A stretch of 63,711 bases of DNA, filler included, from Candidatus Babelota bacterium (GTDB lineage: Bacteria; JAGOBX01), in NCBI GenBank assembly GCA_017999075.1. It is 9 parts of 9 records of this genome, joined end to end, with 100 filler letters (N's around TTAATTAATTAA, not from the genome) between each part and the next. Parts side by side here need not be neighbours in the genome. Positions count along the whole stretch, not along the records: positions 7,148 to 14,183 come from JAGOBX010000181.1; 8 more parts are not named here. One strand, given 5' to 3'. The notes beneath the pieces are model-generated. The model saw nothing but the letters and a program-made list of their open reading frames with translations. It made no database searches and was not told where the DNA came from. The translations under genes and the position numbers were made by a program. The first letter of the stretch is position 1. Every line of letters begins with the position of its first letter. Positions 7,048 through 48,350 of the stretch are shown in pieces.

Positions 7048-7147
7048 NNNNNNNNNNNNNNNNNNNNNNNNNNNNNNNNNNNNNNNNNNNNTTAATTAAT
7101 TAANNNNNNNNNNNNNNNNNNNNNNNNNNNNNNNNNNNNNNNNNNNN
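7048..7147. other. Artificial contig linker
   Basis: N44-TTAATTAATTAA-N44, stops in all six frames. Confidence 0.98.
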
Positions 7148-8495
7148 CTTTGTCAAGGTAAGAATAATATGAATTTGGAGATGTTTCAATTAGCTGTTCA
7201 TTCATCTTATTCGAATATTGGATTATCCGTTTATTAAGATATATATTGATTTTATTTATTAGCTCATTTGAATCAAATGGTTTTAAAAGATAATCATCAG
7301 CTCCGGATTCCATTATTTTCAAAGGCCCGCCTTTTGCTGTTATTACTAAAATTGTAACGTTTTCGGTGAGTTTGTTGTTTTTTAATGAATCAATGATTTC
7401 ATATCCGTCTTTTTCGCTGTCCGGAAGCATTATATCTATAATTGCAAGGCATATTTTTTGTTCTATTATTATTTTATGTATATCAGGAGTTGATTTTGTT
7501 AACCAGACTAATTCAATGTTTTTATCTGCAAGAAGATCTTTTATAAAATTGAAAATTTCAGCATCGTCTTCTATTATCAGAATATTCCGTTTTGCCAGAC
7601 AGGCATTTGTAATGATTTCAATTCCGAATTCATTGCTTGCAGTAAAAGCAGTTATTGTATTGTTTAATATTTTGATTAATTCTATGGAATCATTGGTTAT
7701 TTCTGGATAATTTATGGTGGCAGCATTTGCAATTACTGATATTTCTTTTTTTGAATCTTCCGGCAATACATAAATATAATATTTTATTTTTTCTATTATT
7801 CTTGACATTGCTATACGTGAATTGAAATCATCCGTTTCAGGAAGCAGGATAATAAACTTGTCAAATGAATATCTTGCAAGATAATCGACTTCACGTAAAG
7901 ATTTCTTTATTAAGAATGCAAGTTCTGCCATTATTAAATCACAGTAATACCAACCGATTTCATTTTTTAAATCAGAAAGATTTTTTATATGAATGATTGA
8001 AACAGACATTGTGCGTTTATACCTTAAACATTTTAATGTTTCTTCATTAAATCTTCTGTAAAAGCTTTTGTAATTAGGTATTCCAGTAACGCGATCGATT
8101 TGAACATTATTTTTTAACTGAGAGTTTTTAAGAATGGCGAGTTTTATACGGCTGACAAGTTCTGATTTATTTACGGGTTTGTAAATAAAATCTGAGCTGT
8201 CGTCAATAAAACTTACAGGAAATTTGTTTATTTTTTCCGGTTCGATTACATAAATAACCGGAATCATGTATGATTTTGTAAATATTTGAAGCTCAAAATA
8301 AAAGTTATTTAAAAGATCATCATCTATATATTCTGTGACAATTATATCTGCAAGTTCATCTATGTATTGAGTAATAGTTAAATCTTCGACAATTTTAAAT
8401 TTATATACCAAATTTTCCGACAATGTTTCGCTGATAATATCTTTTTCAGTTAGATTTGATTTGTTATACGGATTTAAATAAAGAATAGTTGTCAT
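7148..8495 (-). CDS. REC-like / degenerate GGDEF / REC protein (3' end truncated by contig end)
   Basis: 'DRVTGIPN', 'LREVDYLARYSFDKF' (RxxD intact, GGDEF replaced by SFDKF), C-terminal receiver 'ILIIEDD...IIDIMLP...VITAK...GADDYLLKPF'. Confidence 0.88.
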
Positions 8496-8548
8496 AAGTA
8501 TAAAGTTAATTTATTTTTAAACTAAAATTGTCATATTTTATAGATTTA

Positions 8549-8577
8549 AGAATAAATAATTATTTTTAAATTGTCAA
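8549..8577 (-). promoter_or_regulatory. Sigma70-type promoter for the GGDEF/REC gene (TTGACA-17-TATTCT)
   Basis: tgtcaa at 8572-8577, agaata at 8549-8554. Confidence 0.55.
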
Positions 8578-8611
8578 TAAAAAAATTTCTAAGGTGAATT
8601 GCAATTAAAAC

Positions 8612-8640
8612 TTGACAAAATGTAACTGTTGTAGTATATT
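8612..8640 (+). promoter_or_regulatory. Near-consensus sigma70 promoter (TTGACA-17-TATATT) with no downstream + strand ORF
   Basis: ttgaca 8612-8617, 17-nt spacer, tatatt 8635-8640. Confidence 0.75.
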
Positions 8641-8646
8641 AAAATC

Positions 8647-8735
8647 AGGGATAGATAATAAAAATCGGATTCAGATTTAATTATCTGAGCGGTTTTGCCG
8701 CCTAAAGCGGCGCATAATATCTATCCCTTTTTTTT
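8647..8735 (+). ncRNA. Candidate small structured RNA (three-way junction), family not recognised
   Basis: Closing stem AGGGAUAGAUA/UAUCUAUCCCU, inner arm AAAAUCG..UCAGAU/AUCUGA..CGGUUUU, hairpin GCCGC-CUAAA-GCGGC, then a U-run. Starts about 7 nt after the -10 box. Confidence 0.6.
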
Positions 8736-8766
8736 GTAAATTATAATTCTGAATTTCTGCAAGAAT

Positions 8767-9717
8767 TTATAAAAGATTATTGTTTATCCAATCCTGATCA
8801 ATTTCATAAATTTCCGGCGAATAATGATACGCTATTATATTATTTTTTATATCAAATTTTTGTTTTATATTATTAGGTAAAAACAATTTAATTATTCCAT
8901 TTAAAGTATTTGCTGTTTTAAAAAAAAATGGATTTAAAAACAATGGAGCTTTCAAATTCATATTTTGGGCAATTTCTGCATATAACGATTTTACAGATAT
9001 ATTTTTTTTATCAGCAACAATTTTAACGATTGTGTTTGCGTCATTTTTTAATGCCGTATTATTAAATGCCAGCCCTAAAATTAAATTAATAACAAGATCT
9101 GAATGAGCTATATGCCACACACAGTTTTTTTCTGACACCACAATTCTGTATTTCAATGATTGCATTCTTTTTTTTATAGTGCCGAAATATTTATCATCAT
9201 CGTAAAGGTATGCGGATCTTAGTATGATTTTATTTATGTCCTTATAAGACATAATTATTTTTTCTGCTTCAATTTTTGATTTTCCGTATTCATCTTTAGC
9301 TGAATAATTAAAATCATTTTTGTATATCTTCTTTTTAGAATTTAGTTTTTTACCATTTAAAACTGAAACAGAACTGAGATATATTAACTTAGGAATATTG
9401 TTTGACTTTACAATTTCACATACATGTTCTGAACCTTCAATGTTTGTTTTATAAAGCTGTTCAATATCGTCATTTTTATTGTATGAAGCCAGATGTATCA
9501 TAACATTTATAGTAATATTTTGAGGAATGGAGAAATTATTAATTTCTCCTGATATAAATATGATATTTTCATGTTTTCTCCAGTATTCAGGAATTTTTTC
9601 AGGGGATCTTATAAGCAAAAATAATTTACACGATTTATTTTTAGTGAAATATTCTATGAATTTATCTATTAATTTTTTACCTAAATATCCGGTAGAACCG
9701 GTTATAAAAATGTTCAT
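8767..9717 (-). CDS. NAD-dependent epimerase/dehydratase (extended SDR)
   Basis: 'FITGSTGYLG', 'IHLAS', 'YLSSVSV', catalytic 'YGKSK'. Confidence 0.9.
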   Translation of the reverse strand: MNIFITGSTGYLGKKLIDKFIEYFTKNKSCKLFLLIRSPEKIPEYWRKHENIIFISGEINNFSIPQNITINVMIHLASYNKNDDIEQLYKTNIEGSEHVCEIVKSNNIPKLIYLSSVSVLNGKKLNSKKKIYKNDFNYSAKDEYGKSKIEAEKIIMSYKDINKIILRSAYLYDDDKYFGTIKKRMQSLKYRIVVSEKNCVWHIAHSDLVINLILGLAFNNTALKNDANTIVKIVADKKNISVKSLYAEIAQNMNLKAPLFLNPFFFKTANTLNGIIKLFLPNNIKQKFDIKNNIIAYHYSPEIYEIDQDWINNNLL

Positions 9718-9834: not shown

Positions 9835-10080
9835 GTGAAAATAAAAGTTTGTCTTGGCACATGCTGCCATTTGCTTGGAAATTATGAAATAATTGAAGTA
9901 CTTGAGAAAACAGCAAAAAATAATATAAATATTGAATTTTCAGGTGCTACCTGTTTAAACCATTGCCGGGATTCAGAGTTAAAACCTCCTTTTGTTGAAA
10001 TAGATGGAGAAATAATTCAAAATGTTAAAGTTGAGGATGTTTTAAATTATATAAAATCAAGGGAACTCTCGCAGCAGTAA
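9835..10080 (+). CDS. NuoE-like thioredoxin-fold [2Fe-2S] protein (hydrogenase-associated)
   Basis: 'VCLGTCCHLLG...GATCLNHC...PPFVEIDG'. Confidence 0.85.
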   Translation: MKIKVCLGTCCHLLGNYEIIEVLEKTAKNNINIEFSGATCLNHCRDSELKPPFVEIDGEIIQNVKVEDVLNYIKSRELSQQ

Positions 10081-10164
10081 ATTTTTTTATCAATAAAATT
10101 AGAAAAAAATATTAGTTATATTATTATATTATATAGCCTGATAGTTTTGAAATAGGGAAAAAAT

Positions 10165-11619
10165 ATGTTTTATTTTACAGAAATTACAGTAATAAAACGC
10201 AGAATACTGAGTTTGTTATGCGAATATTTATTTAACAATGAATATGATAAAATACGGGAAATACCATATATAATCAGTAGTTATAAAGATAAACCTTATA
10301 GATGCTGCGTATATCATGATAGAGCTATCACATCAGATAGAATTAAAATTCTGTTGGGACTTGATGAAAATAAATTTAGAAATGTAAGCTGGAATGACTG
10401 CCTCCAATCATCAATAGCTTCAAAAAATAAAATGCCGTTCATTTATGTTATGACTGAGGCTTGTCATGAATGCCCTCAGAAACGGTATTATATCACTGAA
10501 GCGTGTCAGCATTGTGTAGCTCATCCGTGTAAAATGAATTGTCCTAAAAACGCTATTGAGATACTTTCTAATCGGGCTGTTATTAATGAAGATTTATGCG
10601 TTGAATGCAGTTTATGCAGTAAGCTTTGCCCATATCATGCTATAATTGAAGTCAGCAGGCCATGTGAAAATTCCTGCCCTGTGAATGCAATAAAAACTAA
10701 TGAATGCGGGATTGCTGAAATTGACGAATCAAAATGTATTCTGTGCGGAAGATGTATGTTAAGCTGTCCTTTTGGCGCTATAGTTGAAAAAAGTTATGTG
10801 AAAGATTTTATATTAGATATAAAAAATGGAATAAAAATAAATGCAGTTATAGCTCCTTCAATAGTTGGGCAGTTTTCTCCTAAAGCAAATTTAGAACAGA
10901 TTATTACTGCTTTAAAAAAATGCGGATTACATGAAGTAGTTGAAGCTGCAGAAGGAGCAGATGCTGCCGGTGATTTGGAAAGTTCTGAAATTCTTCAAAT
11001 GGATAAACATAATAAAAAATTTCTTACTTCATCTTGTTGCCCTTCTTTTGTGAATTGTTTGAAAATGCATTATCCTGCTTTAGTTCAAAATATTTCTTCA
11101 ACTTTGTCTCCGATGCTGATAACTGCGGCAAAATTAAAAACCAAATTTCCTGAATATAAAACTGTTTTTATTGGTCCATGCATTTCAAAAAAAAAGGAAG
11201 CAGAAGAACATAACGAACCATTGATAGATTACGTATTGACTTTTGAAGAAATTGCCTGCATATTTGCAGCCAAAAAGATTGATGTTTCGTCTCTTGATAA
11301 AACAGAGATTCTAAATCCGGCAACGAAGTATGGCAGAGGATTTGGAGTTTCCGGAGGAGTTATTCAAGCAATAAAATATTTTTTGTTGAAAAAAAACAGC
11401 GTATTTAATTTCAATGCAAAACTCATAAATGGAATTAATAAAGAAACCTTAAAAATTCTTAAAGGTGCTGCATTCGGTAAAACGGATTTTAATTTTATAG
11501 AAGGAATGTGCTGTGAAGACGGATGCATAGGAGGACCGGGCATAGTGACGAAACCTCAATTGTCGAAGAAAATATTGAATGAACTGCTGTCAAATTCAGA
11601 TGATGAAATTAAGATTTAG
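10165..11619 (+). CDS. Monomeric [FeFe]-hydrogenase, group B-like (HfsD-like), with N-terminal ferredoxin domains
   Basis: H-cluster motifs 'TSSCCPSF', 'FIGPCISKKKEA', 'EGMCCEDGCIGGPG'; several CxxCxxCxxxCP-type clusters; 'YRCCVYHDRA'. Confidence 0.9.
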   Translation: MFYFTEITVIKRRILSLLCEYLFNNEYDKIREIPYIISSYKDKPYRCCVYHDRAITSDRIKILLGLDENKFRNVSWNDCLQSSIASKNKMPFIYVMTEACHECPQKRYYITEACQHCVAHPCKMNCPKNAIEILSNRAVINEDLCVECSLCSKLCPYHAIIEVSRPCENSCPVNAIKTNECGIAEIDESKCILCGRCMLSCPFGAIVEKSYVKDFILDIKNGIKINAVIAPSIVGQFSPKANLEQIITALKKCGLHEVVEAAEGADAAGDLESSEILQMDKHNKKFLTSSCCPSFVNCLKMHYPALVQNISSTLSPMLITAAKLKTKFPEYKTVFIGPCISKKKEAEEHNEPLIDYVLTFEEIACIFAAKKIDVSSLDKTEILNPATKYGRGFGVSGGVIQAIKYFLLKKNSVFNFNAKLINGINKETLKILKGAAFGKTDFNFIEGMCCEDGCIGGPGIVTKPQLSKKILNELLSNSDDEIKI

Positions 11620-14183: not shown

Positions 14184-14283
14184 NNNNNNNNNNNNNNNNN
14201 NNNNNNNNNNNNNNNNNNNNNNNNNNNTTAATTAATTAANNNNNNNNNNNNNNNNNNNNNNNNNNNNNNNNNNNNNNNNNNNN
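14184..14283. other. Artificial contig linker
   Basis: N44-TTAATTAATTAA-N44. Confidence 0.98.
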
Positions 14284-48266: not shown

Positions 48267-48350
48267 TGGTGCGAGAAAGGGGACTTGAACCCCTACGCCT
48301 GAGGCGCTAGATCCTAAGTCTAGTGCGTCTGCCAATTCCGCCATTCTCGC
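48267..48350 (-). tRNA. tRNA-Leu (anticodon TAG), CCA encoded
   Basis: GCGAGAATGGCGGAATTGGCAGACGCACTAGACT-TAG-GATCTAGCGCCTCAGGCGTAGGGGTTCAAGTCCCCTTTCTCGCACCA; long variable arm. Confidence 0.97.

Follow-up and report, generated by a model that had tools for sequence, protein, structure and literature searches.

A candidate stand-alone gene for a small structured RNA in the uncultured phylum of Candidatus Babelota

A stretch of about 82 bases in the genome of a Candidatus Babelota bacterium (GCA_017999075.1, hereafter G000) is probably a genuine stand-alone gene for a structured non-coding RNA, equipped with a promoter and a terminator of its own. The bin to which it belongs comprises 3.83 Mb in 594 contigs (30.2% G+C, 87% completeness), and the element lies on contig C322. 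The window, i.e., the whole stretch of DNA that was analysed (63,711 nucleotides), consists of contig pieces of ~7 kb joined by paired runs of N (7048–7147, 14184–14283, and so on every ~7.1 kb). For comparison we used a collection of 199,900 species genomes, in which the phylum is represented by only four: G000, a genome of the same genus (G001), one of the same family (G002) and one of another family within the class (G003). A sequence-only reading of the window had already proposed an unannotated stand-alone RNA at this place, and the proposal is strengthened by the comparison, given that the predicted cassette of promoter, RNA and terminator is kept in two relatives with unrelated neighbours.

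Promoter, fold and terminator

The features of the element and its surroundings are as follows, in window coordinates.

7092–8495, minus strand: gene with GGDEF and receiver domains (Pfam), upstream and divergent
8549–8577, minus strand: promoter-like site of the GGDEF-receiver gene, TTGACA-17-TATTCT (10/12), belonging to the neighbour and outside the RNA gene
8612–8617, plus strand: −35 hexamer TTGACA, the same in G001 and G002
8635–8640, plus strand: −10 hexamer TATATT (TATATT in G001, TATAAT in G002)
8647–8728, plus strand: predicted RNA body, an 82-nt three-way junction; independent folds of the three homologues give the same shape
8647–8657, plus strand: 5' strand of helix P1 (11 bp), predicted by folding to pair with 8718–8728
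8658–8660, plus strand: J1/2 (AUA), unpaired; AUA opens the junction in all three homologues
8661–8696, plus strand: arm P2, 14 bp and bulged, predicted by folding; the variable arm
8661–8667 with 8690–8696, plus strand: P2a, predicted by folding, with a 2-nt bulge at 8668–8669
8670–8676 with 8683–8689, plus strand: P2b, predicted by folding, with the P2 loop at 8677–8682
8697–8711, plus strand: arm P3, a 5-bp G+C-rich stem with the 5-nt loop CUAAA (8702–8706), directly abutting P2
8712–8717, plus strand: J3/1 (GCAUAA), unpaired; CAU is common to all three homologues
8718–8728, plus strand: 3' strand of P1, predicted by folding
8728–8735, plus strand: U8 tract, predicted intrinsic terminator together with P1 (U9 in G001, U6AUUU in G002)
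8767–9717, minus strand: SDR/epimerase-family gene, downstream and convergent, 32 nt from the structure

The promoter TTGACA-17-TATATT was found at 8612–8640, where the sequence-only reading had placed it. Six promoter-like sites lie in 8000–9300, a number that is not above that in shuffles (6 vs 10.5 ± 3.8), and this one, which agrees with the consensus at 11 of 12 positions, is the best of them. The predicted start, A8647, lies seven bases past the −10 hexamer and coincides, as had been pointed out, with the first base of the 11-bp stem that pairs the two ends and encloses two arms. The U8 tract claimed behind this stem is likewise present at 8728–8735, with its first T (8728) pairing with A8647 of P1. 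Both flanking genes are indeed encoded on the minus strand, and no plus-strand ORF of at least 30 aa lies between them; the longest plus-strand frame inside the cassette has 22 aa. The G+C content of the RNA is 37%, versus 30% for the genome and 12–20% for the adjacent intergenic DNA.

Folding of 8645–8735 on the plus strand gave −35.0 kcal/mol, compared with −16.5 ± 3.1 kcal/mol for 200 dinucleotide shuffles (z −6.01), none of which was as good (0/200). The 3' module of the RNA has the predicted make-up of an intrinsic terminator, i.e., GGG/CCC at the base of P1 followed by U8. A simple terminator scan called no site at the element, because it accepts only loops of 3–8 nt and P1 with U8 exceeds this limit.

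The type of promoter seen here appears to be in real use in this organism. Exact matches to TTGACA-17-TATAWT occur 50 times in the genome, versus 9.3 expected from base composition and 4–7 in each of five shuffled genomes; many of them precede a Shine-Dalgarno sequence and an ATG, and one precedes a tRNA gene. With spacings of 16–18 allowed there are 117 such promoters, 36 of which are followed by a run of at least six T within 40–150 nt. Among these 36 intervals the element described here has the best fold per nucleotide (−0.418 kcal/mol/nt, the runner-up reaching −0.300), and a tRNA gene ranks third. At C114:+2609 a perfect consensus promoter stands immediately before a tRNA-like cloverleaf, which would show that stable RNAs are transcribed from promoters of this kind here. 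At four further sites (C226:+9717, C71:+13512, C427:+1785 and C351:−5861) a consensus promoter precedes a short hairpin and a U-run, and these may be further small RNAs or leaders; the C71 and C427 sites share an identical 16-nt palindromic hairpin sequence.

Homologues, conservation and genomic context

Blastn over 41 genomes returned a single substantial match, in G001 (84% over 101 nt, E 9.8e-25). The two-sequence covariance model, under which G000 and G001 score 112.9 and 113.6 bits, found one copy in G002 (38.4 bits, E 5.7e-07), and this copy reaches 73.6 bits under the three-sequence model. The element is present once per genome in G000, G001 and G002. No fourth copy was found in the phylum with the three-sequence model (three of four genomes carry the RNA), and none at E ≤ 0.01 in 147 genomes of other bacterial lineages, i.e., three positive genomes among 151 overall. 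The best match in G003 (E 0.66, in a search at E ≤ 10) was rejected as an ordinary terminator hairpin behind an ORF.

A 21-mer scan of public genome contigs gave two loci, the G001 contig and a Mucilaginibacter MAG, the latter rejected as a chance match within coding-looking DNA. A gapped-pattern scan gave three loci in metagenome contigs, of which L036 is identical to G002 and L037 to G001 over the aligned stretch, while L035 sits on a contig as long as the G001 record (27,467), and none in viral contigs; taken together, these scans of public contigs yielded no new sequence variant among the aligned loci. Three studies, of activated sludge, wastewater and an anaerobic digester, provided DNA runs that contain the element, and contigs from four of those runs are identical to it, with 0 variants. 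As far as these searches reach, the RNA gene seems to be restricted to one family of an uncultured and sparsely sampled phylum, with three distinct sequences known.

All three copies share a TTGACA hexamer, a 17-nt spacer and a TATAWT −10 hexamer, and the first base of P1 follows 6–7 nt past the −10. G000 and G001 can be aligned from ~12 nt upstream of the −35 through the end of the U-tract and not beyond; the RNA stretch has a mean column identity of 92%, whereas the two orthologous proteins compared between these genomes are only 51% and 83% identical. P1 is invariant between G000 and G001, and its core letters are kept in G002, where the helix has 10–11 bp with one extra G-C pair and a one-base shift in register. 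The core of the P3 stem and the last four letters of its loop are identical in all three homologues, with one C-G to U-G change in G001 relative to G000. The P2 arm of G002 is longer and unrelated in sequence.

Structural conservation in relatives, which the earlier reading had put forward as a check, is seen in both of them. Folded alone, the G001 RNA forms the same three-way junction (−35.4 kcal/mol, z −4.6, 0/200 shuffles), as does the G002 RNA (−30.8 kcal/mol, z −6.1, 0/200 shuffles). The alignment of G000 with G001 has standard pairs in 59 of 60 pair cells; substitutions affect both partners in two pairs and one partner in three others, all of them in P2 or P3; P2 accounts for both of the former and two of the latter. 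This two-sequence covariation is not above that in shuffles, 127/500 of which reach it. In the three-sequence alignment 95.3% of the cells are paired and ten pairs show two-sided changes, which 0/500 shuffles reach, but the alignment was fitted to the covariance model and hence leans towards structure, and five of the ten changes lie in P1, where they reflect the register shift and the extra G-C pair of G002 rather than compensatory changes that arose independently. Run on a plain MAFFT alignment of the three sequences, RNAalifold recovered the same junction (28 pairs, five with two-sided changes); its covariation term was unfavourable (+1.56) and several P1 cells were 'broken', because P1 of G002 is mis-registered in the plain alignment. 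To judge from these comparisons, P2 has clearly been kept as a helix through sequence turnover, and P1 and P3 appear conserved as sequence, which neither proves nor disproves their pairing. Statistical support for the fold is limited, since there are only three distinct sequences and two of them are 92% alike.

The orientation of the element can be read from several features. The promoter and the U-run are on the plus strand in all three homologues; at four pair positions at least one sequence has a G-U pair, which becomes an A-C mismatch on the opposite strand; and the covariance model scores 113.6 bits on the plus strand of G001 versus 30.2 on the minus strand. These observations bear on two readings of the minus strand, both very unlikely in our judgement. 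One takes the structure as a branched bidirectional terminator of the convergent SDR gene, next to a promoter-like sequence that arose by chance. The SDR gene does end at 8767, 32 nt from the structure, and a good fold is likewise obtained for the minus strand (−32.1 kcal/mol, z −5.2), but the minus-strand stem has no U-run in any of the three copies, the G-U pairs favour the plus strand, and the cassette is conserved with its promoter in G001, where no gene converges on it. The earlier reading had likewise held the element hard to explain as a simple terminator.

The other reading, to which we give an equally small chance, is a minus-strand micro-ORF with G+C-rich arginine codons behind a Shine-Dalgarno-like AGGGA, yielding a tiny peptide or an RNA that sequesters ribosomes or tRNA. 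Minus-strand ATG frames of 12, 23 and 7 aa start at the same place in the three genomes, reading MRRFRR in two and MKCRFTR in the third. Neither their lengths nor their stops are conserved, the shared codons are the conserved P3 stem read in frame, the putative ribosome site lies inside P1, and no minus-strand promoter-like site was found right of the element.

The genomic context differs in each genome. In G001 the RNA gene has a divergent Ppx/GppA gene upstream and, 34 nt past the U-tract, a different epimerase gene on the same strand; in G002 a divergent acyltransferase-3 gene lies upstream and a convergent 81-aa ORF without a Pfam match downstream (L031:1758–2003, minus strand). Orthologs of the G000 neighbours are located on other contigs in both G001 and G002. 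An all-vs-all comparison of ORFs (7 kb of C322, 18.5 kb of G001 and 14 kb of G002) found just histidine-kinase and receiver domains in common, and the Pfam-scanned neighbourhoods gave no hint to the function of the RNA. Since the neighbours differ at all three loci, we read the RNA gene as an autonomous unit, independent of them. A second combination of promoter and hairpin, at the equivalent place in G001 (L041:3028–3100), was rejected as not structured (z −0.73).

The sequence-only reading had described the RNA as divergent from a c-di-GMP-receptor-like gene. The divergent layout stands, but the identity of the neighbour does not; its GGDEF and receiver domains make it a diguanylate-cyclase-type response regulator. 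Because the window is built of joined contig pieces, the ORF of this gene (7092–8495) reaches the end of a contig. The ortholog in G001 is 83% identical (867 aa) and lies on another contig without the RNA, so that the divergent pairing would be incidental. The DNA upstream of the two orthologs can be aligned through the block of the neighbour's own promoter (8549–8577), where homology stops.

Two side observations concern the surroundings. The counterpart of the SDR/epimerase gene in G002 (L039, G002:C61:14243–15124) has one in-frame TGA, which could reflect a pseudogene, a sequencing error or recoding. Window positions 9835–11619 hold a thioredoxin-like [2Fe-2S] ferredoxin ORF followed by a cysteine-rich ORF of 484 aa that, judged by eye, looks like an [FeFe]-hydrogenase-type protein.

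The change of locus in all three genomes, and the end of homology between G000 and G001 near the ends of the cassette, could be explained by a DNA-level or mobile element, for instance a hairpin signal in single-stranded DNA or a miniature mobile cassette. We regard this as extremely unlikely. The element is single-copy in each genome, no transposase or recombinase is encoded among the Pfam-scanned neighbours, and viral contigs, phage and plasmid records give short chance matches at most (a 'distant' blastn search against phages and plasmids covered just 31–37% of the query, at E 8e-3 to 0.3). A non-systematic look at the aligned flanks noted no terminal direct repeats.

The G001 layout also bears on a cis-acting leader, an attenuator or riboswitch-like aptamer in which P1 would double as the terminator stem and the choice between termination and read-through would depend on the binding of a ligand or protein. 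Here the epimerase gene on the same strand, 34 nt past the U-tract, is followed by a second plus-strand ORF (154 aa, running off the end of the locus), and a three-way junction closed by P1, as in this RNA, is a common aptamer shape. Against a leader, the next downstream gene is convergent at the two other loci (8767–9717 in G000, and L031:1758–2003 in G002, both on the minus strand), and no anti-terminator pairing is conserved, a competing GCGG/CCGC hairpin being available in G000 and G001 and absent from G002. Membership among riboswitches or cis leaders was rejected, with a same-strand downstream gene at only one of three loci (G001), and a leader is in our view improbable.

Possible roles of the RNA

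To our knowledge, RNA regulators have hardly been described in candidate phyla represented solely by metagenome bins. For the element described here, three genomes would allow the transcription start, the fold and the terminator boundaries to be read off directly, an uncommon situation in such lineages.

Provided that the gene is genuine, its product most likely serves as a compact RNA that binds protein or has a structural role, and not as an sRNA that pairs through a seed. Recognition by shape is favoured over seed pairing because the longest unpaired run conserved in all three RNAs is only 4 nt (within the P3 loop), P1 takes up the 5' end, and Hfq was found in 0/4 genomes of the phylum. As the conserved sequence features suggest, transcription by RNA polymerase carrying the housekeeping sigma factor would begin near A8647, at the first base of P1, and the nascent RNA would fold into the three-way junction. 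Once P1 is completed by its 3' strand, this G+C-based helix of 11 bp and U8 would together serve as the RNA's own intrinsic terminator, releasing an RNA of ~82–89 nt with both ends presumably locked in the helix. This compact RNA may act in trans and be recognised as a shape, as an RNP subunit or by way of a protein partner or as a decoy. The surface recognised could be made up of P1, whose sequence is invariant, the conserved hairpin P3 including the 5-nt loop, and the junction letters AUA and CAU, whereas P2 would be a spacer arm only. For an RNA gene of this kind, a trans-acting product that is recognised by shape as a protein partner or decoy is a plausible role, though its chances fall somewhat short of even.

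A trans-acting antisense sRNA that works without Hfq is a rather unlikely alternative. A loop of the RNA, most plausibly that of P3, would kiss target mRNAs, and the pairing would spread into the stem and alter translation or stability. In its favour, the gene is laid out in the classic manner of sRNAs, with a promoter and an intrinsic terminator of its own and without ties to its neighbours; the P3 loop is conserved; and, with CsrA present and Hfq absent, any pairing would have to be Hfq-free. However, no single-stranded seed is conserved, the longest conserved unpaired run being the 4 nt mentioned above, and the 5' end is not free. BLAST against the own genome found no extended complementary site (the best minus-strand match spans 31 nt at 84%, E 0.17), and the 8–13-nt motifs of the element occur there at chance frequency save for one 9-mer (30 vs 8.9 expected); among words from P1 and P3, no enrichment of note was seen in this genome.

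As another and still less probable role, the junction might specifically bind a small molecule or a protein dedicated to it, with P1 doubling as the terminator, and the element would then represent a new compact RNA class. Occupancy of the junction would decide between release of the RNA as a stable trans-acting particle and read-through, the latter being allowed by the layout in G001, where the RNA gene stands before the epimerase operon; the RNA would be a stand-alone sensor and not a leader.

Whatever its role, an RNA that lacks a known family and an Hfq or Ro partner offers a clean entry to the protein or ligand partners of end-locked RNAs, and a covariance model is ready for wider mining of metagenomes. 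We rate the importance of the finding as moderate, because the distribution is narrow and there is no clue to function.

Comparison with known RNA families and systems

A search of the whole window at the gathering thresholds of Rfam 15 assigned no family to the element; the sole match at this level was a tRNA gene at 48270–48350 on the minus strand (58.1 bits). A permissive search of 8450–8800 (E ≤ 10) gave four matches with E 1.9–6.4, all far under their cut-offs, the best being STnc361 (E 1.9, 18.8 bits vs a cut-off of 80). The Infernal search against Rfam that the earlier reading had suggested thus returned no family match, and its exclusions of a tRNA, an SRP RNA and a known riboswitch are also borne out. 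ARAGORN called no tRNA or tmRNA gene in 8400–8900, where the Rfam tRNA model had no match either; the element does not match the SRP RNA model (RF00169), of which G000 has a canonical copy elsewhere; and no riboswitch family of Rfam matches it. An exact 26-mer of the element had no match in the papers searched, although supplements and subscription journals could still describe it, and the papers listed by a search by concept were general work on ncRNA discovery and riboswitches.

Several housekeeping RNAs have canonical genes elsewhere in the lineage, so that the element is not their divergent stand-in, and SRP, 6S and 5S RNA were rejected on these grounds. SRP RNA was found in G000 (C433, 72.9 bits), G002 and G003 but not in G001 (3/4 genomes of the phylum), 6S RNA (RF00013) in G001 and G002 (2/4), and 5S rRNA (RF00001) in G002 and G003 (2/4; 104 and 93 bits). 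With 5S rRNA the element shares a three-way junction whose closing helix joins both ends, but 5S rRNA has ~120 nt versus 82 nt here, its model has no match at the element, and G002 carries a canonical 5S gene in addition to this RNA. 6S RNA is also longer (~180 nt vs the 82 nt of the element).

Among protein-associated RNAs, an Hfq-dependent sRNA was rejected, as Hfq (PF17209) was detected in 0/4 genomes of the phylum (completeness 86–97%). CsrA is encoded in all four. CsrB-type sponges show many GGA motifs in loops; here the only GGA common to the three RNAs is within P1, another one occurring in the G000 and G002 RNAs and missing in G001, and a CsrB-type sponge of CsrA is unlikely. Bacterial Y RNAs associate with Ro/Rsr proteins and have a long stem, formed by the two ends of the RNA, that bears a branched module inside and is followed by a U-rich tail. 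Compared by these features, the element has a similar size, an end-closing stem with a branched module and a U tail, but its P1 is a perfect helix without a bulge and no Y-RNA or tRNA-like Rfam family matches it. TROVE-domain Ro/Rsr proteins (PF05731) were found in 0/4 genomes of the phylum, the control search matching Deinococcus and Bacteroides, and a Y-RNA-like role is thus not supported.

The architecture of the junction invites two further comparisons. Hammerhead ribozymes are likewise small three-helix junctions, with core strands of ~7, 3 and 1 nt, whereas the junction strands here measure 3, 0 and 6 nt in G000 and G001 and 7, 4 and 7 nt in G002; a hammerhead was rejected, given that the core letters are missing from the junctions and no Rfam ribozyme was matched at E up to 10. 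Purine-type and similar aptamers are three-way junctions of ~70–80 nt in which P1 closes two hairpin arms. The element shares with purine-type riboswitch aptamers its size, the arrangement of P1 and two arms, and the few conserved junction letters, but it has no Rfam match, two of its three loci lack a same-strand downstream gene, and loop-loop complementarity is not common to all three RNAs, the P2 loop of G001 lacking the complement present in G000 and G002.

The closest parallels are with the generic sRNA genes of bacteria. Whereas the whole RNA here is predicted to lie inside the terminator stem, with no free 5' seed, in a phylum with Hfq in 0/4 genomes and with no Rfam family, the gene shares with them a near-consensus sigma-70-type promoter, a terminator stem with a U-run, the lack of coding capacity, a single copy and independence of its neighbours. 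By these features the element would be a new family within a familiar kind, the stand-alone bacterial small structured RNA.
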